A stretch of DNA of 64,000 bases, taken from Candidatus Hydrogenedentota bacterium. GTDB lineage: Bacteria > Hydrogenedentota > Hydrogenedentia > Hydrogenedentales > SLHB01. This document shows positions 2,624-42,269 of the stretch, piece by piece. The notes beneath the pieces were generated by a model that did not search any database, was not told the DNA's origin, and saw only the letters and a program-made list of their open reading frames with translations. The stretch spans positions 1 to 64,000 of the forward strand of contig BTVY01000024.1 of assembly GCA_045863335.1 (NCBI GenBank), written 5' to 3'. How positions within the stretch are numbered: position 1 is the first letter of the stretch; each line of letters starts with the position of its first letter. The position numbers and the translations under genes were made by a program.

Positions 2624-4426
2624 ATGCGCCGAATACTTTTTTCAATTCTATTGCTGATGCTAACAATGCCCGTCGCATTGGCCCATGTCGGCCAACATCC
2701 CTCCGTACACGATACGGTCGCCGGCATCATCGAGCGACTGAAGGAAACGAAATCTCACGAGGAACTACAGAGCCTGACTCTGGAGCAGGTTGAAGCGGTT
2801 CTTACCGAGGAGGAGCGTCACGTTCTTGCGACGGAGCATCTCTCCTTTGATGTGAATGTACCGGTTACGGTGTACGTCGTCCGGGACGTGGAACTCGACC
2901 GGGAGCCATTCTGGCTGGAGGAATACGAGTTCACCAAGACCGATCTCCGTCTTGTAGTTGACAGTGACGAAGTATTTGACGTGTGGAAGAAGGATTTTGA
3001 TGCGGGCCGCGTTGGGCTTGGCACAAACAGCTTAACCGGGCGGGGCGACCACTATTTCGTCGTCTTGAAACCGCAGCAGGATGGCACCCCCATCGAAGTA
3101 ACCAACATGTATCCGGGTCAGCATGAGGTCATGGTGCTTGAAGAGAACCTGAGCGCGTATCGCGGGTGGAACGACAAGCCAATCACGGAAATCCCGGCCG
3201 AGTTGAAGGGGCACGTGCTGATCCGCGACGACAACAGCCGGCGTCGCGAAACGCGGCTGGTGGACGTGTTTCGAGTTACCCCCTACCCCGCGACTCAAAC
3301 GCCCGACCATGTTGTCTTGACGTGGAGCGACGATCCGAAAACGACCCAGACGATTCAATGGCGCACGAGCACGGATGTCGATGAAGGCTTTGTACAGTAC
3401 CAGAAGAAGTCGGCGTTTCATCAGTTCGATCCCGAAGACCCGGAGCGGGTTCAGGCGGAGACCAAGCCGTTGGAGAATCCGACGCTGGTAAACGATCCGG
3501 TGATTCACCGCCACACCGCCACGATTACGGGGTTGGAGCCGGAGACGACGTACGTGTATTCCGTGGGCGATGGTTCCGAAGATGGGTGGACGGAACTTGC
3601 GGAGTTCACGACGGCGCCGGACGGCGTCAAGCCGTTTTCGTTTATCTATATGGGCGACGCGCAGAACGGGCTCGACCGTTGGGGATCGCTGATCCATCAT
3701 GCGTTCCGCGAGCGGCCTGATGCGGCGTTCTACGTGATGGCGGGGGATCTCGTGAATCGCGGAAGCGAGCGGGACGACTGGGACAGCTACTTCGAGAATG
3801 CGGAGGGGATTTTCGACCGCCGACAGGTCGTGCCGTGTTTGGGAAATCACGAGTATCAGAATAACGATCCCAGTTTGTACCTCGAGCAGTTTGCGTTGCC
3901 GCTGAACGGGCCGGATACGATCGGACCGGAGCGGGCGTATTCTTTCGAGTATAGCAACGCGATCTTCGTGGTACTCGACTCGAACCAACCGGCCGATACG
4001 CAGACTGCGTGGCTGGAAGAACAACTCGCCAACACGGACGCCACGTGGAAGTTTGTCGTCTATCATCATCCCGCATACTCTTCGTCGGCGCGCCGCGACA
4101 ACCCGGAAGTTCGCAAGATTTGGGGCGCCATTTTCGACAAGTATCACGTGGATCTTGCGCTGCAGGGCCACGACCACGCGTACTTGCGGACGTATCCGAT
4201 GAAGAACGAACAGCGCGTCGATTCGCCCGCAGAGGGAACGGTCTACGTGTTGTCCGTATCGGGTACGAAGTTTTACGATCAGGGAGACCTGGATTACATC
4301 GAGTTTGGCATGACGAATGTCGCGACCTATCAAGTTCTCGACATTCAGATCAGCGGCGACCGGCTCGTCTATCGCGCGTACGACATCGATGGGAGCAAAC
4401 GGGACGAGTTGATCATCGAGAAATAG
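2624..4426 (+). CDS. secreted metallophosphoesterase (purple-acid-phosphatase-like, FN3 N-domain)
   Basis: Signal peptide. FN3-type PAP_N segment (PDHVVLTW...LEPETTYVYSVG). Calcineurin-like motifs GDAQ, AGDLV, GNHE, HHP, GHDH. Confidence 0.85.
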   Translation: MRRILFSILLLMLTMPVALAHVGQHPSVHDTVAGIIERLKETKSHEELQSLTLEQVEAVLTEEERHVLATEHLSFDVNVPVTVYVVRDVELDREPFWLEEYEFTKTDLRLVVDSDEVFDVWKKDFDAGRVGLGTNSLTGRGDHYFVVLKPQQDGTPIEVTNMYPGQHEVMVLEENLSAYRGWNDKPITEIPAELKGHVLIRDDNSRRRETRLVDVFRVTPYPATQTPDHVVLTWSDDPKTTQTIQWRTSTDVDEGFVQYQKKSAFHQFDPEDPERVQAETKPLENPTLVNDPVIHRHTATITGLEPETTYVYSVGDGSEDGWTELAEFTTAPDGVKPFSFIYMGDAQNGLDRWGSLIHHAFRERPDAAFYVMAGDLVNRGSERDDWDSYFENAEGIFDRRQVVPCLGNHEYQNNDPSLYLEQFALPLNGPDTIGPERAYSFEYSNAIFVVLDSNQPADTQTAWLEEQLANTDATWKFVVYHHPAYSSSARRDNPEVRKIWGAIFDKYHVDLALQGHDHAYLRTYPMKNEQRVDSPAEGTVYVLSVSGTKFYDQGDLDYIEFGMTNVATYQVLDIQISGDRLVYRAYDIDGSKRDELIIEK

Positions 4427-33240: not shown

Positions 33241-34659
33241 TTAGTGGTCCTCGACTTGCTTATGGGATTCCCGTTGCTTTTGCTGATGCAACAGGGCTTT
33301 CAATTCGAATACGGAAATCATGGGCAGGAACCGCACGAACAACAGGAACAGGAACAGGAACAGTCCAATCGTGCCCAGGTAGGTCGCCCAATCCCAGAAC
33401 GTCCCGTGGTAATTACCCCAGGACGAGGGCAGGAAGTCGCGGGCCAGACTCGTCACGACGATGACGTAGCGTTCGAGCCACATGCCCACACTGACGACCA
33501 TGCAGATGGCGAACAGGATGTACAGGTTGTAACGCACCCGCTTGAACCAGAGGAACTGCGGAACCAGGCCGTTGCAGAAGATGAGCGCCCAGTAGGACCA
33601 TGCGTAGTGGCTCGCGCCGCCGGTGACGCCCATGCGGTTGGTAAACATCATGTATTTCTCGTAGATGTTGCCGCTGTACCAGGCGTAAAAGGCTTCCGAC
33701 GCGTATCCGTACAAGACGATCAGCCCGGTGACCAACATGACTTTCGCCATGTTGTCGATGTGCTTCATCGTAATGAGGTCTTCAATGTGGTAGAGCTTGC
33801 GCACGGGAATCGCGAGGGTCAGCACCATCGCAAATCCGGCGTACACGGCGCCCGCGACGAAGTACGGCGGGAAGATCGTCGTATGCCACCCGGGAATGAT
33901 GCCCACGGCGAAGTCGAAACTCACGACGCTGTGCACCGACACCACGAGGGGCGTCGAGATGCCCGCAAGCAGCAGATAGGCCATTTCATAACGCGACCAG
34001 TGGCGGGCCGAGCCGCGCCATCCGAGGGCGCCCATACCGAAGGCGATCTTGGCGAAGCGGTTTTTCGCGCGGTCGCGCAGCCCCGCCAAGTCAGGCACAA
34101 GGCCGACGTACCAGAATAGCGCGGACACGGTGCCGTACGTGGAGATGGCGAACACGTCCCACACGAGCGGGCTGCGGAACTGCGGCCACAGCGCCATCGT
34201 ATTCGGATACGGCAAGATGAAGTAGAACAGCCACGGGCGGCCCATGTGGAGCAGCGGGAACAAACCCGCGCACGCCACGGCGAACAGCGTCATGGCCTCG
34301 GCGAACCGGTTGATGGACGTGCGCCAATCCTGCATAAGCAGAAGAAGAATGGCTGAAATGAGCGTTCCCGCGTGGCCGATACCAATCCACCACACGAAGT
34401 TGATGATGGCCCAGCCCCAGGCGACGGGAATCTGGATGCCCCAGATTCCAACGCCTTTGGCAAACAGATAGCCCACCGCGTTGAGGAGAAGCAGGAGCAA
34501 CAGGGATGCAACCCCCATCGTGATGAACCACGATTTGGGGTGCGGCTTCCGATCGACGATGTCGTTGACCTTGTCGGTCAACGTACCGTAGTCGTGTCCC
34601 GGCTCCAATAAGGGCGGCTGGGGATCAATGTCCGTGAGTTTGTTCTGTACCACTGCCAT
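33241..34659 (-). CDS. actC: alternative complex III quinol-binding NrfD-type subunit
   Basis: NFVWWIGIGHAGTLISAIL, WRTSINRFAEAMT, HMGRPW, SVHSVVSFDFA. Confidence 0.95.
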   Translation of the reverse strand: MAVVQNKLTDIDPQPPLLEPGHDYGTLTDKVNDIVDRKPHPKSWFITMGVASLLLLLLLNAVGYLFAKGVGIWGIQIPVAWGWAIINFVWWIGIGHAGTLISAILLLLMQDWRTSINRFAEAMTLFAVACAGLFPLLHMGRPWLFYFILPYPNTMALWPQFRSPLVWDVFAISTYGTVSALFWYVGLVPDLAGLRDRAKNRFAKIAFGMGALGWRGSARHWSRYEMAYLLLAGISTPLVVSVHSVVSFDFAVGIIPGWHTTIFPPYFVAGAVYAGFAMVLTLAIPVRKLYHIEDLITMKHIDNMAKVMLVTGLIVLYGYASEAFYAWYSGNIYEKYMMFTNRMGVTGGASHYAWSYWALIFCNGLVPQFLWFKRVRYNLYILFAICMVVSVGMWLERYVIVVTSLARDFLPSSWGNYHGTFWDWATYLGTIGLFLFLFLLFVRFLPMISVFELKALLHQQKQRESHKQVEDH

Positions 34660-37600
34660 GTGTCGTAGGCGCCTCAAGCTCGGGGTTCGGGTTGCGAAGT
34701 TTTGCCAAATAGGTCGTCCGGGGACGGGTATTCAGGTCGGCGAGCAGGCCGTAGTTGCGCGGGCTCGCCTTCCATTTCGATACGGTGCTGTCCGGATCGC
34801 TGATATCGCCAAAGACGATCGCGCCGGCGGGGCAGGCGGTCTGGCACGCGGTAACGATCTCGCCGTCGCGCACCTTGCGTCCTTCCTTCTTGGCCTCGAT
34901 ACGGGCCAGATTGATGCGCTGCACGCAGTAGGTGCATTTCTCCATGACGCCGCGGGTTCGGACGGTTACGTCGGGGTTGTATGCCATCTGCCGCACCGGA
35001 GTGCTGCGGTCGGAGTATTCCAGGAAGTTGAAGCGGCGCACTTTGTAAGGACAGTTGTTCGAGCAATACCGGGTCCCGACGCAACGGTTGTACACCATGT
35101 CGTTGAGGCCCTCTGCACTGTGAACGGTTGCCGCCACCGGGCAAACGACTTCACAGGGGGCATTCTCGCACTGCATGCACGGCACGGGCTGATGAACCAC
35201 TTCGGGATCGCCCGCGGGATCGCCTTTGTAATAGCGGTCGACGCGAATCCAGTGCATCTCGCGCTGGGCGATGACCTGGTCCCGGCCCACGACGGGGATG
35301 TTGTTTTCCGCCTGACACGCGATGGTGCAAACGCCGCATCCGGTGCAGGCGTTGAGGTCGATGGCCATCCCCCACTTGTATCCGTCGTACTCGTGTTCGG
35401 GGAACAGGGTCATGTCCTGCGCGGGGACGTGGCCCATGTGCTGGGCAAATTCGGGGTGTTCCTCAAACTCGTGGAGCGTGCCGACGCGCGCCAGGGGGCG
35501 GCCTTCCTGCGTCAGCACTTGATGCAACTCGGTGCGCGCCAACTGAGCGCCCGTGCTGATTCGGCGCAGCACGGCGCCGACGGCAAACTGCATCGTGTCG
35601 GCGGTACGCAAAAGATAGGCGTTGAACCCGGCACCGTTGCCAACCTTGCCCGCGCGGTCGCGACCATACCCCAGGTGCAACGTCACGGTGTTGTCCGGAT
35701 GACCGGGCTGCACCCAGATTTGCCCCTTCGCCGTCCGCTCGCCCGCCTTGACCTCGACCACGTCGAAGACGTTGAGGCCCAGCTGTCGAGCGGTTTCAAA
35801 ACTGACGATTACGGCATTGTCCCACGTCAGCTTGGTGAGCGGTTTGGGCAATTCCTGCAACCAACCATTGTTGGCCCAACGGCCATCCCCGATCGTGGGG
35901 TCCGGCCGGAAGACAACTTCCAACTCGCCTTCGCCGGAAATCGTCGCGGCCTGTGTGGCGGCATTCGCGCTGAGCGCTACGGACTTCGGCTGAAACGCCG
36001 TGTTTTCAATGAATCCTTTGCTCAACGCGGTTCGCCACGCCACATCGAAGCCCGTTTGCCCAAGCTGGCTTTGCCAATACTGGCGAACCACGTCGTAGGC
36101 GGAAGCGGGCTGTCCGGCAATCGCCGACACCATTTCTTGCGCGGTCTTACCACCGTACAGCGGGACGATGAGCGGCTGAATGATGCTGACCGTTCCGTCG
36201 ATGGAACGAACGTCGTCCCAAGACTCCAGATAGTGAGCCTGGGGGATGTGCCAATGACAGAGCACGCCGGTCTCATCCACATAGAGGCCGAGGTGGATGC
36301 GATGACTTACCTTGTCCAGGGCGGCCGCGAAATTGAGGTCGGCGGGGGCGTTGTACACCGGGTTCCCGCCGAGGATAACCAGCGTGTGGACCTTGCCGGC
36401 TTCCATATCGCGAACGAGTTCGCGCAAAGACTCGATTTGATTGACCGGCTCGGCTTCGACCGGGTCCGTGTAGACGACGGATTTGCCGGCGTTGCCGAGG
36501 GCATCATTCATTGCGTGCGCCAACGCGTGGAGCGACGCGGGTTGACCGTCGCCCGGCACCACGACGCAGGCGCCCGGGTGCCCTTTAAGATCCGCGGCCA
36601 CGGCGGCGACCCATTCCTGCAAGGACCCGTCGGGATCCGCGCCCGGGGCGGCAACGCCGATGGCGCGCGCGATGGCGCGCGCGATGATTTCGACCTGGCT
36701 CGGCGCCACATGCTTGACGTGGTCGGCGGAGGCGCCCGTCAACGTGGGGGTGCTTTCCAGAGCGTAGAGGCGATTCATGTTGGGGTGCGCCCCTTCCACG
36801 GACCGTCGCTTCGCAAAATCATTTGCGTATCGGACACATCCCGGCGCACCGCCAAGCAGGTCCGCATCGAGCGTCAAGATGACATCGGCCTTCGAGAGGT
36901 CATACCGCGTTTCGACGTACTGACCGAAGGCCGTCTGGGCGCCGGCGCGGGCGGAATCGCGGTTCACCGGCTCGTACTGGTGCCAGCGCGCCGACGGCAT
37001 GGCTTCGAGAAGCGCGCGAATGCCCGCCGCCAGAGAAGGCGAACCGACGGTTTCCGTCAGAATGCGAAGCCCTTCACCGGCGCTGTCGCGAAGACCCTCG
37101 CCGATCTTTGCCCCGGCGGAGTCTTTGGGTCCGTTCACCAGAACGTCCATTTCGCTCGTGAAGATGTCCCACGTGGAGATCCGCCCGAGTTTGAGCGGTG
37201 CCGTCGACCGATCCGGATCGTAGAGACTCAATACGGAAGCCTGCGCGAAGATATCGGTCGCGCCATTGGCGGTGCTTGCGGGATGAAGGGGATTCCCCTC
37301 GATCTTCGTCGGGCGGCCGGTGTGGCTCTCGGCCAGCAGACCGATGCCGTATCCGGACAAGGGCATGGCCGTCGCAAAGTACATAGGCGCGCCGGGAACC
37401 ATCTCCTTCGGCGGTGTCACGTAGGGGATGATGTGTTCGGTTGGCTGGCGCGAGCATGCCGAGGTCAAACCGGCAAGCGCCAGCGACGCCCCCATGACCT
37501 TGAGGAACTTGCGGCGCTCCACGCCGCTTTCCATCACCGACGCTTCGCGTGGAAACTCGCGGTAGAGGAAATCGCGGAACTCTTCCGTGTCCGCCAGTTG

Positions 37601-37741
37601 CTCCAGCCCCTGCCAGTACTCCGGACCGCTCCGTTCCTGCAAGCGTTCCCGGATCGTGTCGAGGTTAATGGGTTCCCGTGTTTTTTCTTCGGTATTCACG
37701 ATTGAATTTGCACCTGGCTTCACACTGCTCATCGGTGGCAC
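34625..37741 (-). CDS. actB: alternative complex III molybdopterin-oxidoreductase-like / Fe-S subunit
   Basis: Tat-variant leader (YWQGLEQL...REFP...RRKFLK). C-terminal ferredoxin Cys clusters CTGCGVC, CMQC..PC..VCP, CVGTRYC, CTYC...CQTACP. Confidence 0.95.
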   Translation of the reverse strand: MPPMSSVKPGANSIVNTEEKTREPINLDTIRERLQERSGPEYWQGLEQLADTEEFRDFLYREFPREASVMESGVERRKFLKVMGASLALAGLTSACSRQPTEHIIPYVTPPKEMVPGAPMYFATAMPLSGYGIGLLAESHTGRPTKIEGNPLHPASTANGATDIFAQASVLSLYDPDRSTAPLKLGRISTWDIFTSEMDVLVNGPKDSAGAKIGEGLRDSAGEGLRILTETVGSPSLAAGIRALLEAMPSARWHQYEPVNRDSARAGAQTAFGQYVETRYDLSKADVILTLDADLLGGAPGCVRYANDFAKRRSVEGAHPNMNRLYALESTPTLTGASADHVKHVAPSQVEIIARAIARAIGVAAPGADPDGSLQEWVAAVAADLKGHPGACVVVPGDGQPASLHALAHAMNDALGNAGKSVVYTDPVEAEPVNQIESLRELVRDMEAGKVHTLVILGGNPVYNAPADLNFAAALDKVSHRIHLGLYVDETGVLCHWHIPQAHYLESWDDVRSIDGTVSIIQPLIVPLYGGKTAQEMVSAIAGQPASAYDVVRQYWQSQLGQTGFDVAWRTALSKGFIENTAFQPKSVALSANAATQAATISGEGELEVVFRPDPTIGDGRWANNGWLQELPKPLTKLTWDNAVIVSFETARQLGLNVFDVVEVKAGERTAKGQIWVQPGHPDNTVTLHLGYGRDRAGKVGNGAGFNAYLLRTADTMQFAVGAVLRRISTGAQLARTELHQVLTQEGRPLARVGTLHEFEEHPEFAQHMGHVPAQDMTLFPEHEYDGYKWGMAIDLNACTGCGVCTIACQAENNIPVVGRDQVIAQREMHWIRVDRYYKGDPAGDPEVVHQPVPCMQCENAPCEVVCPVAATVHSAEGLNDMVYNRCVGTRYCSNNCPYKVRRFNFLEYSDRSTPVRQMAYNPDVTVRTRGVMEKCTYCVQRINLARIEAKKEGRKVRDGEIVTACQTACPAGAIVFGDISDPDSTVSKWKASPRNYGLLADLNTRPRTTYLAKLRNPNPELEAPTTHGSGTEQTHGH

Positions 37742-38391
37742 ACCGAACAGTTGGTCAACTGCTGTTTGTTGATGTCGTACTCTTCAACGAGGCGCTTGCC
37801 CATCTCGAGCTGGGATTCCTCTCCCGAAGGCCTCCAGTTCATGTTGAACACTTCTTCCTTGGGCCGGATGAACTTTTCCGGCGCCTTATGGCATTCGAGA
37901 CACCACTGCATGTGAAGCGTCTGCCCCTTCGACATGAGTGGCATCTGATTCACCTGGCCGTGACACGTGACGCAGCCAATGCCCTTGTTCACATGGATGC
38001 TATGATTGAAATAGACGAAGTCAGGAAGATCGTTGACGCGAACCCACTCCAGCGGCTCTCCTGTGGCCCAGCTCTGACGCACCGGCTCCAACATGGGCGC
38101 TTCGGTCCAAACCTGTGAGTGGCAGGTCATGCACGTTTCGGTCGGAGGGATTCCCGCGAAGGCATTGTCCTCCACGGAGGTATGGCAGAACCGGCAATCG
38201 ATGCCGAGGGCGTCCACATGGTGCTTATGGCTGAATGGCACGGTTTGTTCGCGAGCCATACCTACGCGGGTCACGAATGGAGAACGATAGAAGATGCCCG
38301 CACCTGCGCAAATGACCCCTAAGAGAAGGACCCCCCCAATGATGCTTCCACGGGCGACCGTGTTCATGCTGGACGGGAAAATCTGTGCCAC
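37729..38391 (-). CDS. actA: alternative complex III pentaheme cytochrome c
   Basis: Five CxxCH motifs (CRFCH, CMTCH, CVTCH, CLECH, CSVCH), QTVPFSHKHH, N-terminal TM, GTG start. Confidence 0.95.
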   Translation of the reverse strand: MAQIFPSSMNTVARGSIIGGVLLLGVICAGAGIFYRSPFVTRVGMAREQTVPFSHKHHVDALGIDCRFCHTSVEDNAFAGIPPTETCMTCHSQVWTEAPMLEPVRQSWATGEPLEWVRVNDLPDFVYFNHSIHVNKGIGCVTCHGQVNQMPLMSKGQTLHMQWCLECHKAPEKFIRPKEEVFNMNWRPSGEESQLEMGKRLVEEYDINKQQLTNCSVCHR

Positions 38392-38685
38392 CTGAATACC
38401 TCATCCCACGTACATCAATCCGGCGCACGGCGGGGAGGCAATACCTCTCCCCCGTTCGCAGCGCGACAGAACTTGCTCGCACGTGTCTGATACGTTCCCC
38501 GGCACCAGTACCGGGTCAGCCTTGCCTGATGTTTCCGGACAGAGTTCTCTTGAGAGCGGACTACCACTCGTGTTGGAATCTGAACCGATTGCCTGAAGCG
38601 CCGGTACGTGAACCCGCTTGTCAGCGCACTTCCCGCGACGCCCTACCAACTGCGTCTACGAGAGCCCAACGCTCAGGGAGCCGTG

Positions 38686-38714
38686 AGTGTAATGGCTCCG
38701 ATCCCGAAAGTCAA
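38686..38714 (-). promoter_or_regulatory. sigma70-type promoter of the act-cox operon
   Basis: Minus strand reads TTGACT-N17-TACACT, ~290 nt upstream of actA. Confidence 0.65.
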
Positions 38715-39046
38715 CAACTTTTTCGCGATCAATTTCGCGATTCATCGGTAACTGTATCTGCCCCATGGACTCCGGAACGGGAATATTGGACGCAGGTTGC
38801 TCAAAAAACTGGATTTAGCGAGTTTTTCAGGCGGCGTAGAAATGGATCGTTGGGCGATGCTGGGTCCTGGCACAGCGCGTTCGAACAACGGCCGCAGAAG
38901 GGATTCCATCCGTGAGATCGCGCACGATTACCGGATGCGTTGTGACGGCCAAGAACAAAGACACGCGTCAAGCCGCGCACGCTCTCGCGACCTCGTCCAC
39001 TCGCCATCCAAGTGTTTGCCAAGGGGGTGAAGTTTTTGAAGTGTTC

Positions 39047-39217
39047 ATGGGGCGTTGCCCCATGCTGGTATAGAGCGCGCCGTTGGCGCAGGTATCACGA
39101 TAGCTCGTGTCACAAAGTAATTCTCCCGAGGGCCAACGGCCCGAACCATACCAGCCTGGGCCGCAGGCCCAGGGCCAGGAAAAATCACTTGCCGAGAGGG
39201 CTGAAAGCCCGGCCTAT
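39047..39217. repeat. REP-like palindromic cluster (family C)
   Basis: Nested short hairpins TGGGGCGTTGCCCCA, GGGCCAACGGCCC, CCTGGGCCGCAGGCCCAGG, GGGCTGAAAGCCC. Related to 57830-58030. Confidence 0.65.
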
Positions 39218-39364
39218 TGCCCACGACGAGTCGGGCCAAATAATTGCAAATCTATTGCGGTTCGTGGGGCCGTGCGGGTTGAAATGTCAGCACCGCACCC
39301 TTTGTAAGGATATATTTCAAAAGCGCATACAACCGACCGGGGAGCGGGAACAACGAATGCGTCA

Positions 39365-39393
39365 TTGCGATCAGGTGGTTTATGTTCTAGACT
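39365..39393 (+). promoter_or_regulatory. sigma70-type promoter of the XRE regulator-ahcY unit
   Basis: TTGCGA-N17-TAGACT, 33 nt upstream of ATG 39427, which has a GAGGTG SD. Confidence 0.6.
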
Positions 39394-39426
39394 TTGAACG
39401 GGTATTGGCAGTCCGAGGTGATATAC

Positions 39427-40182
39427 ATGCTGCTTTCAGATTTGGCGAAGCGGATTCGTTCGAAACGCGAGAAGCGCGGTCTGAAACAGCAGGACATCGC
39501 CAACGCATTGAATGTCAGTCCCCAAGCCGTCTCCAAGTGGGAGCGCGGCGAGAACGCGCCGGATATCGCGGTGCTCGGGCCTTTGGCCAAGCTGCTGGAT
39601 GTTTCCGTGGATTGGCTGCTGGGGACGCGCGAGGAAGGCGTCGACGTGTTCCAGGCGAGCGTACTCGTCAGCAGCATCTCCGGCGCCTATGAGAAGTCGT
39701 TGCATATGCAGGCCCGGGATTTCGCCATCTGGGCGAATGGCCTGTTCTACCAGTTGACAGAGATTACGCTGCGGCACGACGGCATTCCCGTGAAGTACAT
39801 GGGCGACCGGTATCTCGCCTTCTTTTCGGGCACGAGCCATCCGGAGCGCGCGCTTCAGACCGCCGCCGAGGGCCGCGTGCTGATCGGCGACGACCTCCGG
39901 ATCGGCCTGAGCACGGGCGAGATTTACCTCGGTTCCGTCGGCCACCCGGATTACGCGCGGCCCGACATCATGGGGTCGACGGTGAATCTGGCGTTTCTGA
40001 CCCTTGACTGGGCCGAGAAGAACGCGGAGAGCGGCTTGGCCGCACCGAAGGCGATGGTCGACGGTCAGACGTTGGAGGTCGACGTCGGACGGCGGGCCAA
40101 GGTGAATTTCCTGGACATCGACCGTGCCGTGGAAGTTTGTGAATTGTGCATCACCGGTTCCCTGGCGAACCGCGAAAAATAA
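39427..40182 (+). CDS. XRE-family HTH regulator fused to a degenerate class III nucleotide cyclase domain
   Basis: HTH: LKQQDIANALNVSPQAVSKWERGENAPD. Cyclase-like: VKYMGDRYLAFF, LRIGLSTGEIYLG, DIMGSTVNLA. Confidence 0.85.
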   Translation: MLLSDLAKRIRSKREKRGLKQQDIANALNVSPQAVSKWERGENAPDIAVLGPLAKLLDVSVDWLLGTREEGVDVFQASVLVSSISGAYEKSLHMQARDFAIWANGLFYQLTEITLRHDGIPVKYMGDRYLAFFSGTSHPERALQTAAEGRVLIGDDLRIGLSTGEIYLGSVGHPDYARPDIMGSTVNLAFLTLDWAEKNAESGLAAPKAMVDGQTLEVDVGRRAKVNFLDIDRAVEVCELCITGSLANREK

Positions 40183-40242
40183 GGAATGGCAACGGACGGG
40201 CCGGCGCGATGCGTCCCGTACATCCAAGGAGGTTTGAAGACG

Positions 40243-41694
40243 ATGAGTCCTGCGACACTCGAAAAACAGGCCGACTACAAGGTCGCCGACCTGGGTCTGG
40301 CCGATTGGGGCCGCAAAGAAATCGACATGGCCGAAAAGGAAATGCCCGGTCTCATGGCGATTCGCGAGCGTTACGCCGCCCAGCAGCCGTTGAAAGGCTA
40401 CCGGGTCATGGGTTCGCTCCACATGACGATTCAGACGGCAGTCCTGATCGAAACGCTTGGCGCATTGGGCGCCGACGTACGCTGGGCGAGCTGCAATATC
40501 TTTTCCACGCAGGATCATGCTGCCGCCGCGATCGCGAAAGCAGGGTACCCCGTGTTCGCGTGGAAGGGCGAGACCCTCGAAGAGTACTGGTGGTGCACGC
40601 TCCAGGCCTTGACGTGGCCGGATGGCAGCGGCCCGCACCTCATCGTCGACGACGGCGGCGACGCGACGTTGCTGATCCATCGCGGGTACGAGTTTGAAGA
40701 AGTGTTCTCGAAAACCGGGAAGCTCCCGGAAGTCAGCACGGAGAATCAGGAAGTCGAGATCGTGGACCGGCTGTTGCACAGCGTCCATGCCGAGCTGCCG
40801 AACAAGTGGCACGGATACGTGAACGACTGGATCGGCGTTTCGGAAGAGACCACGACCGGCGTGCATCGTCTGTATCACATGATGAAGGCGGGCACCCTGC
40901 TGACCCGCGCCATCAACGTGAACGACTCGGTGACGAAGTCGAAGTTCGACAACCTCTACGGCTGCCGCGAGTCGCTGGCCGACGGTATCAAGCGCGCCAC
41001 GGACGTGATGGTCGCGGGCAAGGTCGTCGTGATCGCGGGTTATGGCGACGTGGGCAAAGGCTGCGCGGACGCCATGAAGGGTTTGGGCGCGCGCGTGCTG
41101 ATTACGGAAATCGACCCCATCTGCGCGTTGCAGGCCTGCATGGAAGGCTATGAAGTGTTGACCATGGAAGACGCGGCCCCGAAGGGCGATATCTTCGTCA
41201 CGACGACCGGCTGCTGCGACGTGATCCGTCGCGAGCATCTCCAGAAGATGAAGGACGAAGCCATCGTCTGCAACATCGGCCATTTCGATTCCGAGATCGA
41301 AGTCGCGTGGCTGGAATCGGAAGTCGCCAAGGGCAACGTGACCGAACTGAACATCAAGCCGCAGGTGGACAAGTACATCTTCCCGAACGGCAACTCGGTG
41401 ATTCTGTTAGCGAAGGGCCGCCTCGTGAACCTCGGTTGCGCGACGGGCCACCCCTCCTTCGTCATGTCCAACTCCTTCGCGAACCAGACACTCGCCCAGA
41501 TCTCGCTGGCGACGGAAACGAAGTTGTACGAGTCCGGCAAGGTCTACACCCTGCCGAAGGTCCTCGACGAAGAAGTCGCGCGGCTGCACCTGGAAAAACT
41601 CGGCGCACGCCTCGAACGCCTGTCCGACAAGCAGGCAAACTATCTCGGCGTCCCGGTCGAAGGACCGTACAAGCCGGACCACTACCGCTACTAA
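40243..41694 (+). CDS. ahcY: adenosylhomocysteinase (SAH hydrolase)
   Basis: [77 protein letters not shown]. Confidence 0.98.
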
Positions 41695-41720: not shown

Positions 41721-41759
41721 CGCCGCGTCCGGTGCCAACCGCCGGACGCGGCGTTTTTT
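41721..41759 (+). terminator. rho-independent terminator of ahcY
   Basis: CGCCGCGTCCGG-loop-CCGGACGCGGCG followed by TTTTTT. Confidence 0.85.
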
Positions 41760-42269
41760 GTTGTCCCCAGCCACCATGAGGCAAAGGCCCGACGGAAGGC
41801 CGCACGGCGATCGCCAATCATTGTCGGTAGCTTGGCAGTCCCCGCCTGCCCAACCCGAACCGGCCACCTCAACGGTAATGATTCGTTTCTTGCCAACGCG
41901 GAGACGTACATAGGTCGCCACGTGCGAATCATCTACGTGCCTCCCCGATCAGCAGTAAGGAAAGGGGCCGTCGCCGCGAAAACGGATTGAAGATTCTGGG
42001 CCCCATTAGTACGCGTTGCGGAATGTTCAACAGCGAGCCCTCTCTTCAGCCCCAATCCTCAGAAGTCCCACTGTTGCATTACGACTTGGGCCCCAGAGCC
42101 AAGCCCGATTGCTCGAGTGATACTTGCACGACGGGTACCCTTATAATGCACTTGAATTGGTATGGCATCGAACGCATTCTGCGCCGGTCCCGAACTTCCG
42201 GTCCCAGCTGAATCAGAGTGAAGCTCTCGTCATCAAGACACAACCTGTCACAGGTCCCGCCGCCGTGGC

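Follow-up and report, generated by a model that had tools for sequence, protein, structure and literature searches.

What controls ahcY, the gene for S-adenosyl-L-homocysteine hydrolase, in the phylum Hydrogenedentota? What is known of how the activated methyl cycle is controlled comes from a few model phyla, in the form of MetJ, MetR, SahR and riboswitches for S-adenosylmethionine (SAM) and S-adenosylhomocysteine (SAH), and we know of no work on it in Hydrogenedentota, Latescibacterota and their neighbours. We analysed a 64,000-nucleotide stretch of DNA from a Candidatus Hydrogenedentota bacterium (contig BTVY01000024.1, positions 1 to 64,000; hereafter, the window), in which ahcY is preceded by a gene, here called reg, that encodes a helix-turn-helix (HTH) protein of the XRE type with a C-terminal domain resembling nucleotide cyclases. 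The original prediction for this locus, made from the sequence alone, was that the cyclase domain has lost its catalytic residues and been repurposed as a sensor of an adenosyl ligand, making the protein a regulator of the methyl cycle. We propose, with a probability of about 0.6, that reg is an autoregulated, local, one-component regulator of the reg-ahcY operon that senses an adenosyl metabolite through the former cyclase cleft. Domain architecture, fold, residue pattern, conserved synteny and a conserved operator and promoter were observed directly; dimerisation, DNA binding, ligand class and loss of catalysis are what we infer from sequence, a structural model and synteny.

The N-terminal domain of the protein belongs to the HTH_3 family. 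Its nearest relatives of solved structure are the Xre-family regulator of ICEBs1, P22 C2 and the 434 repressor (29-32 bits), and all NCBIfam matches to the HTH are below threshold, with RstR and DicA at the top. Within the predicted recognition helix, Q33, S36, K37 and W38 are nearly invariant across the family.

The second domain matches Guanylate_cyc (Pfam PF00211) over residues 78-189, weakly but above threshold (24.5 bits versus a cut-off of 21.9). A profile built from the C-terminal domains of 12 family members matched solved class III cyclases with E values of 7.6e-15 to 1e-12, including soluble adenylyl cyclase (sAC), Cya2, CyaB and photoactivated cyclases. An AlphaFold2 model computed from a 30-sequence alignment (pLDDT 94.3, pTM 0.80) was compared with solved structures using Foldseek, which ranked Cya2, CyaC, CyaB and Rv1625c first (2W01, 1WC1, 3R5G and 4P2F; E 9.5e-13 to 1e-9, target TM scores 0.71-0.75). 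Thus, the two-domain architecture of the original prediction was borne out by both Pfam and the modelled fold, and each of the motifs it had named (K-x-x-G-D, RIG...G and D..G.TVN.A) is present in the translation, within VKYMGD (122-127), RIGLSTG (158-164) and GHPDYARPDIMGSTVNLAFL (172-191); the segment that should carry the first metal-binding Asp reads VLVSSISG (79-86).

Catalysis by class III cyclases requires two metal-binding Asp residues and a transition-state Arg. In adenylyl cyclases a Lys/Asp pair specifies adenine, and an Asn contacts the ribose. By hidden Markov model alignment to solved class III cyclases, S83 takes the place of the first metal-binding Asp (the D of ..VDISGFT..; Asp1), the K..GD motif corresponds to K123 and D127, and the VNLAAR motif corresponds to N187 and L191. 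Hence, the second metal-binding Asp (D127) and the Asn are retained, Asp1 and the Arg are replaced just as had been predicted, and the adenine-specifying pair is intact (K123 and D180). The domain therefore belongs to the class III cyclase fold and sequence family, yet falls short of it at two catalytic sites. The same pattern extends across the 34 genome-derived orthologues, in every one of which S, T or G stands in place of Asp1 and L or I in place of the Arg, with K123 (R in Latescibacterota), D127, D180 and N187 unchanged. It recurs in the 44 unique ahcY-linked sequences of the main clade described below, and in all ahcY-linked members the Asp1 position holds S, T, G or A and the Arg position L or I. 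Since both Asp1 and the Arg are lost, the protein is most likely not a cyclase. The residues with which cyclases normally bind the triphosphate (Arg191, Lys229, Arg158) have been lost or vary. A further motif, GHPDYA, is invariant and specific to the family; we know of no role for it. Elsewhere in the same genome, at 66620-67012 of contig C3, a 691-aa frame contains a second cyclase-homology match (residues 77-190, 32% identity, E 6.7e-5), which could represent a true cyclase.

We next consider how consistently reg is found beside ahcY. A word-indexed search returned 930 database proteins at E<=1e-3, with source names that are mostly Candidatus Hydrogenedentes, so the architecture recurs beyond chance; an exhaustive search among representatives clustered at 50% identity gave 48 matches at E<=1e-30. 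We found reg in 35 of 135 Hydrogenedentota genomes, in 36 copies, 32 of which have ahcY directly downstream. Among the 30 Hydrogenedentota loci that were fetched, ahcY is the next gene downstream, in the same orientation, in 29 and one is cut by a contig end; three further copies adjoin ahcY by their coordinates, and three copies, all in one genus, are not adjacent to it. In Latescibacterota, 23 of 151 sampled genomes carry reg, at 24 loci, where the downstream gene is ahcY in 18, threonine synthase (thrC) in three and an open reading frame (ORF) resembling Trm112 in one, two loci being cut. A scan of genome contigs with a pattern drawn from the HTH gave only four full-length loci among 80, all four with ahcY downstream (one from Hydrogenedentales, two from Latescibacterota and one unclassified). 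Because this HTH-seeded scan yielded so few full-length loci, we built an alignment of the C-terminal domain for a scan of metagenomes; 17 of the 80 loci recovered have ahcY downstream. Members in Planctomycetota and Verrucomicrobiota are leads only, taken from the labels of an ESM Atlas cluster. Linkage of homologues to methionine-cycle genes, on which the original prediction was to stand or fall, is therefore strong for ahcY, and it extends in sister clades to metE, thyX, a methyltetrahydrofolate (methyl-THF) methyltransferase-like gene and thrC.

Three genomes hold unusual arrangements. G107 has two reg-ahcY pairs, the regulators being 99% and 83% identical to that of the window, and this bin may be a mixture of strains. 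In G132, ahcY matches in two abutting pieces with a 2-base overlap and the regulator frame extends to 333 aa, which suggests a frameshift or an assembly error. The unclassified genome G136 has two regulator paralogues, one of them before ahcY; the second (53% identity) lies ahead of a gene of the class II aldolase family and lacks an operator-like site.

We also asked what stands before ahcY where reg is absent. The survey covered 37 of roughly 90 such genomes, and in these 37 ahcY-upstream stretches we detected neither a reg homologue nor a riboswitch. No other conserved regulator was seen among the ten neighbouring ORFs that we tested, which encode UvrA, an ADP-ribosylglycohydrolase, a PfkB kinase, sigma-70/ankyrin proteins (two), HepT, FtsX and three proteins without a family. 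With no conserved neighbour in these genomes, the reg-ahcY pair is kept against a background of rearrangement.

Within the window, reg and ahcY have the layout of a two-gene operon. Both GAGGTG at 39415-39420 and an alignment of the N termini of 30 orthologues back the start codon of reg, and the ribosome-binding site of ahcY (AAGGAGG, 40226-40232) lies inside the intergenic spacer. A terminator scan found no terminator-like hairpin in the spacer and a clear one after ahcY, placed by the scan at 41721-41753, in agreement with the original prediction. Contigs assembled from RNA libraries (Logan; two runs from two studies) bridge the reg-ahcY junction, covering 39383-40325 and 40163-40978. This is weak evidence compatible with co-transcription, as such contigs cannot prove a single transcript, its start or its level and DNA may contaminate these libraries; RNA runs that share few sequence words with the window are uninformative about habitat. 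We rejected an SAH riboswitch as the means of ahcY control: no SAH or SAM-SAH riboswitch was matched by Rfam in the whole window at the gathering threshold or in 38300-40400 at E<=10, and there was likewise no match in the 37 ahcY-upstream stretches of relatives or in three regulator loci.

Upstream of reg are two predicted tandem operator sites followed by a -10-like hexamer, with the proximal site running into a -35-like hexamer (Table 1). The hexamer pair was missed by a generic promoter scan that required 9 of 12 matches. The strict palindrome CAAyGA-N5-TCrTTG is found upstream of reg in 32 of the 34 genome-derived loci. We assembled 41 unique ahcY-linked promoter regions, 37 of which reach at least 17 bits with a position weight matrix (PWM) for the operator. 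In all of these 37 strong promoters TTGnnn is kept in the same register, with its TTG formed by the end of the operator; in 36 of them TAnnnT follows 17-18 nt later, and in 36 a second xAAC precedes the proximal site by 21-22 bp. This puts the centres of the tandem sites at roughly -41 and -62 of the promoter. Among the 29 instances used to train the PWM, one (L033) had been picked spuriously by regular expression, which weakens the matrix and does not inflate its scores. Of the 11 metagenome loci outside the training set, several of which are near-duplicates of training loci, ten score 17.7-30.0 bits; Latescibacterota loci score 14.8-24.2 bits. Conservation of the operator and promoter supports DNA binding by the protein, probably with autoregulation.

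Table 1. Predicted and annotated features of the reg-ahcY locus (positions in the window).
Feature	Position	Strand	Details
Distal, weaker predicted operator site	39330-39346	+	CAACCGACCGGGGAGCG; CAAC exactly 21 bp upstream of the proximal CAAC
Proximal predicted operator	39351-39367	+	CAACGAATGCGTCATTG; 17-bp imperfect palindrome CAAyGA-N5-TCrTTG (CAAC-N9-ATTG)
-35-like hexamer	39365-39370	+	TTGCGA; TTG is the final three bases of the proximal operator
-10-like hexamer	39388-39393	+	TAGACT; 17 nt beyond the -35-like hexamer
Regulator gene (reg)	39427-40182	+	251 aa; XRE-type HTH and degenerate class III cyclase-fold domain
HTH_3 domain, residues 10-64	39454-39618	+	Pfam PF01381, 61.9 bits versus cut-off 23
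Cyclase-fold sensor domain (putative), residues about 74-242	39646-40152	+	Pfam, AlphaFold, Foldseek and residue alignment
reg-ahcY spacer, 60 nt	40183-40242	+	reg stop 40180-40182; ahcY ATG 40243
ahcY, S-adenosyl-L-homocysteine hydrolase	40243-41694	+	483 aa; Pfam AdoHcyase 483 bits, AdoHcyase_NAD 278 bits
Intrinsic terminator	41721-41763	+	14-bp stem, 12 G-C pairs, then T-run; ends the two-gene operon

To ask how far regulation might reach, we searched the 6.75-Mb genome with the PWM. The site at the promoter of reg scores 31.4 bits versus 22.2 for the runner-up. All 11 runner-up sites overlap mechanically called ORFs of at least 120 aa, a weak criterion because the genuine site overlaps such an ORF too. 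No operator-like site was found upstream of metK, metH or metF in this genome, where the best scores range from -0.3 to 7.8 bits. A wide methyl-cycle regulon is therefore unsupported here; the regulon looks local, probably comprising reg-ahcY. The designation "methyl-cycle regulator" in the original prediction is accordingly too wide for this genome, and the family members beside unrelated genes likewise narrow that prediction.

The metagenome scan placed the regulator in a wider family; loci outside the neighbour categories given here were uninformative or cut. At 27 loci the regulator is followed by a gene for a membrane protein of about 125 aa that contains two CxxC pairs and belongs to no known family; next comes metE at nine of the 27 and thyX at eight, and at two metE lies upstream instead. 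One further locus has metE directly downstream, and one has a pterin-binding gene resembling methyl-THF:corrinoid methyltransferases. The degenerate residue signature is the same in sister clades before metE, thyX, the methyl-THF methyltransferase-like gene or thrC. The protein of about 125 aa, hydrophobic in its N-terminal half, lies directly after the regulators of the metE/thyX clade (e.g. L164:3566-3934 and L190:3516-3896), has no Pfam or NCBIfam match and, judged from this recurrence, is a putative conserved partner gene of those regulators. At locus L216 a cobalamin riboswitch (4190-4391, 68.9 bits) sits between the small gene and metE, and so provides a second layer of metE control there; another cobalamin riboswitch is on the minus strand of L179.

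We built a tree of 93 unique sequences (FastTree, LG+gamma, midpoint root) and read it for its groupings; the order of its clades, and with it the direction in which catalysis was lost, is tentative. All ahcY-linked members but two (L226 and L163) form one clade, every leaf of which is ahcY-linked or cut by a contig end, and the metE/thyX group forms a separate clade. These two clades have the same residue at 44 of the 48 positions that are conserved to at least 85% in both, including K123, Y124, D127, H173, P174, Y176, D180, N187, F190 and W195, which argues that they read the same signal. Promoters of the metE/thyX clade contain a related tandem operator, TCAAC-N5-GTTGA and then GAAC-N9-GTTGA, that overlaps a TTGCAA -35 element ahead of a TATAAT-like -10; the relatedness of the operators fits the near-invariance of the recognition-helix residues. 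A small clade (L152, L153 and L155), not next to ahcY, has the full canonical set D-K-D-D-N-R-K, and the representatives P0136 and P0139 also keep the canonical catalytic residues. These proteins could be DNA-tethered active cyclases. L156 and L158, neighbours of the intact clade, differ only at the Asn (replaced by Val) and precede a DEAD-box helicase gene.

How might such a protein work? We suggest that the Cro/C1-type HTH binds the two tandem CAAC...ATTG operators at the promoter of its own operon, and that occupancy of the proximal site would cover the -35 hexamer. The cyclase fold presumably forms a head-to-tail dimer whose interface contains the cleft. From what is known of cyclase biochemistry, loss of Asp1 and the Arg would abolish catalysis, and the retained Lys, Asp and Asn would hold an adenine nucleoside. 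The former active-site cleft is most likely a pocket for an adenosine-containing metabolite that has no triphosphate, the best guess given that the adenine and ribose residues are kept and the triphosphate residues are lost or variable. Closing of the dimer around the ligand would alter the presentation of the two HTHs and so tune transcription of reg-ahcY. Given the ahcY target and the sister clades before metE and thyX, SAH is our favoured guess, with SAM second. Whether the protein represses or activates is about even: sites at -41 and -62 that overlap the -35 are equally compatible with a repressor that blocks the -35 and with a cI-like or class II activator. Of the original proposal of a pseudo-cyclase turned adenosyl sensor, clade-wide degeneracy and an invariant Lys/Asp/Asn set have been observed; inactivity and the ligand are inferred.

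Several observations weigh against the preferred reading. Besides the metK, metH and metF regions, the TTG portion of the conserved motif is no more than the -35 element, and conservation of the Lys, Asp, Asn and second metal-binding Asp could partly reflect structural constraint and not a ligand. Some members adjoin genes with other functions: in the metagenome scan these are genes for a TAXI-TRAP binding protein (four loci), a DEAD helicase (three), a PagL-like protein (two), PPK2 (one) and a CN-hydrolase (one), and genomes G072 and G073 carry a 55-56% identical homologue after an AcrB-type gene, away from ahcY, next to a PagL-like gene in G072. Although 124 of the 135 Hydrogenedentota genomes have ahcY, 100 of the 135 are without reg, so ahcY can manage without it. 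Finally, the metagenome loci include many near-duplicates of the genome loci, and counts taken across relatives lack independence.

We considered four other explanations. The protein might be a DNA-binding autoregulator in which the cyclase fold is a dimerisation scaffold only, with no ligand, the operon being buffered by negative autoregulation. Class III cyclase domains are obligate dimers and the fold is confirmed; however, K123, D127, D180 and N187 line the cleft, are unneeded for dimerisation and yet are invariant across clades that are 45-55% identical, and a metabolic signal is suggested by the recurrence of the gene ahead of ahcY, metE and thyX. We consider this explanation unlikely. 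Much the same low likelihood attaches to a sensor of some non-adenosyl ligand, be it homocysteine, methionine, folate or, as in sAC-type cyclases, bicarbonate. The neighbouring thyX, pterin-binding gene and thrC fit a signal from folate or the homoserine branch as well as they fit SAH, the best Protein Data Bank matches include the bicarbonate-responsive sAC and CyaC, and the GHPDYA motif lacks a known role, but the best-kept residues of the pocket are the adenine Lys/Asp pair and the ribose Asn, whose roles we take from general knowledge of cyclases.

It is very improbable that the window's protein is a still-active, unusual adenylyl cyclase tethered to DNA, that is, a bifunctional enzyme and transcription factor. 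One set of relatives (L152, L153, L155, P0136 and P0139) does keep Asp1, Lys, Asp2, Asp, Asn, Arg and Lys, and the protein itself keeps D127, K123, D180 and N187. Asp1 and the Arg, both needed for catalysis, are nevertheless replaced in every ahcY-linked member, and in a homodimer the partner chain cannot supply them. We give hardly any credence to the notion that something other than transcriptional control underlies conservation of the gene pair, with reg encoding an Xre protein of the phage or antitoxin type or a protein that binds AhcY. That notion draws on the HTH, which is closest to phage repressors and the regulator of an integrative and conjugative element and has RstR and DicA as its sub-threshold NCBIfam matches. 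Against it, reg is present as a single copy per genome, its neighbours in the window are ahcY and a multihaem/oxidoreductase-like operon with no phage or toxin gene seen beside it, and a conserved operator with constant spacing to the promoter is what is expected of a transcription factor.

Such a regulator invites comparison with SahR, which combines an ArsR-type winged HTH with a methyltransferase-like effector domain. The window's regulator has neither: among Pfam matches up to E=1, only HTH_3 and Guanylate_cyc were found, with no ArsR or methyltransferase family. Leyn et al. (2014; PMC4239095) describe SahR of Proteobacteria, of which SamR is a distant relative, as an SAH-responsive repressor of the SAM cycle, with a core regulon of sahR, ahcY, metH, metF, metK and sometimes metE and a 20-bp palindromic site. 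The same account provides a precedent for SAH inducing ahcY and methionine-synthase genes. Like SahR, the regulator described here is a one-component protein tied to ahcY, with sister clades before metE, and its place in the operon and its predicted operator would fit autoregulation. Unlike SahR, it joins an XRE HTH to a class III cyclase fold, neither domain being homologous to those of SahR, and it has 17-bp tandem CAAC..ATTG sites and, in this genome, a regulon that apparently consists of its own operon only. We suggest that the two may be functional analogues.

The closest structural relatives are the class III cyclases themselves (Cya2, 2W01; CyaC, 1WC1; CyaB, 3R5G; Rv1625c, 4P2F; sAC, 4CM2), with which the domain shares its fold, its sequence family, K..GD, the Asp of the adenine pair and the Asn. 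The differences are the loss of Asp1 and the Arg in all ahcY-linked members, the N-terminal XRE HTH and GHPDYA. Cyclase folds that retain only part of the catalytic set are known from the C2 domain of mammalian adenylyl cyclase (AC) and from the subunits of soluble guanylyl cyclase (sGC), and chains of sGC and AC were among the matches when the domain was searched by fold and by profile. However, those domains complement a partner domain to make up one active site, whereas in a homodimer here neither site would have Asp1 or the Arg, and DNA binding is the presumed output. Cyclase-homology domains and HTHs are reportedly joined in one chain in actinobacterial cyclase-ATPase-LuxR proteins; these have a C-terminal LuxR HTH and ATPase/TPR modules, in contrast to the N-terminal XRE HTH found here. 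In an ESM Atlas cluster, MerR_1 and Guanylate_cyc are each on 41% of members, which we treat as a lead only. No link to ahcY is reported for LuxR- or MerR-type HTH-cyclase fusions in the material that we found. With Cro/C1 repressors such as the 434 repressor and P22 C2, the protein shares its HTH and the tandem palindromic operators beside or over the -35, and XRE-cupin regulators are said to follow a similar overall plan of an XRE HTH with a C-terminal sensor. Here, however, a cyclase fold would serve as the sensor or oligomerisation domain, in place of a cupin, peptidase or cI-type C-terminal domain. The literature that we searched contained no description of an XRE-cyclase regulator, nor of ahcY control beyond SahR and riboswitches.

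The surroundings of the locus hold features of their own. A dispersed repeat of about 180-220 nt lies at 39041-39260, 90 nt upstream of the operator. It has nine further copies (77-84% identity) on eight other contigs, as well as five short pieces clustered on one contig, and it contains an inverted repeat (39048-39087 and 39132-39171) and sub-threshold matches to Acido-Lenti-1 RNA (32.4 and 25.9 bits versus a cut-off of 37). It could be an element resembling miniature inverted-repeat transposable elements or repetitive extragenic palindromes, or a small-RNA family. Farther upstream, 34625-38391 on the minus strand is divergent from reg and holds a 1038-aa ORF and a 220-aa ORF, the latter with five CxxCH haem-binding motifs; its appearance is that of a multihaem/oxidoreductase operon. 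Four tRNA genes lie clustered at 170-836 on the minus strand of the window.

Taken together, these findings suggest that reg is a regulator of methionine and one-carbon metabolism of a type not described before, present in several bacterial phyla, in which the novelty would lie in a one-component design with a new sensor module and in a new regulatory link. The family is a concrete regulator open to testing, for which an operator, a promoter and a ligand class are predicted. More tentatively, and with the odds somewhat against it, the whole group may be an undescribed XRE-HTH and class III cyclase-homology family in which an ATP site was turned into an SAH or SAM sensor and repeatedly recruited to ahcY, metE, thyX and related one-carbon genes; it would then represent a third, non-homologous solution beside SahR-type proteins and the SAH/SAM riboswitches, and the intact, DNA-bound cyclase clade would mark the origin of the family. 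Should SAH or SAM prove to be the ligand, the domain might also be used as a new scaffold for a protein biosensor of methylation potential. The regulator would, in addition, clearly exemplify in bacteria the conversion of a nucleotide-cyclase domain into a receptor for a metabolite, with a bearing on the origins of pseudo-enzymes, and since intact and degenerate clades stand side by side in this family, the transition between them can be studied.

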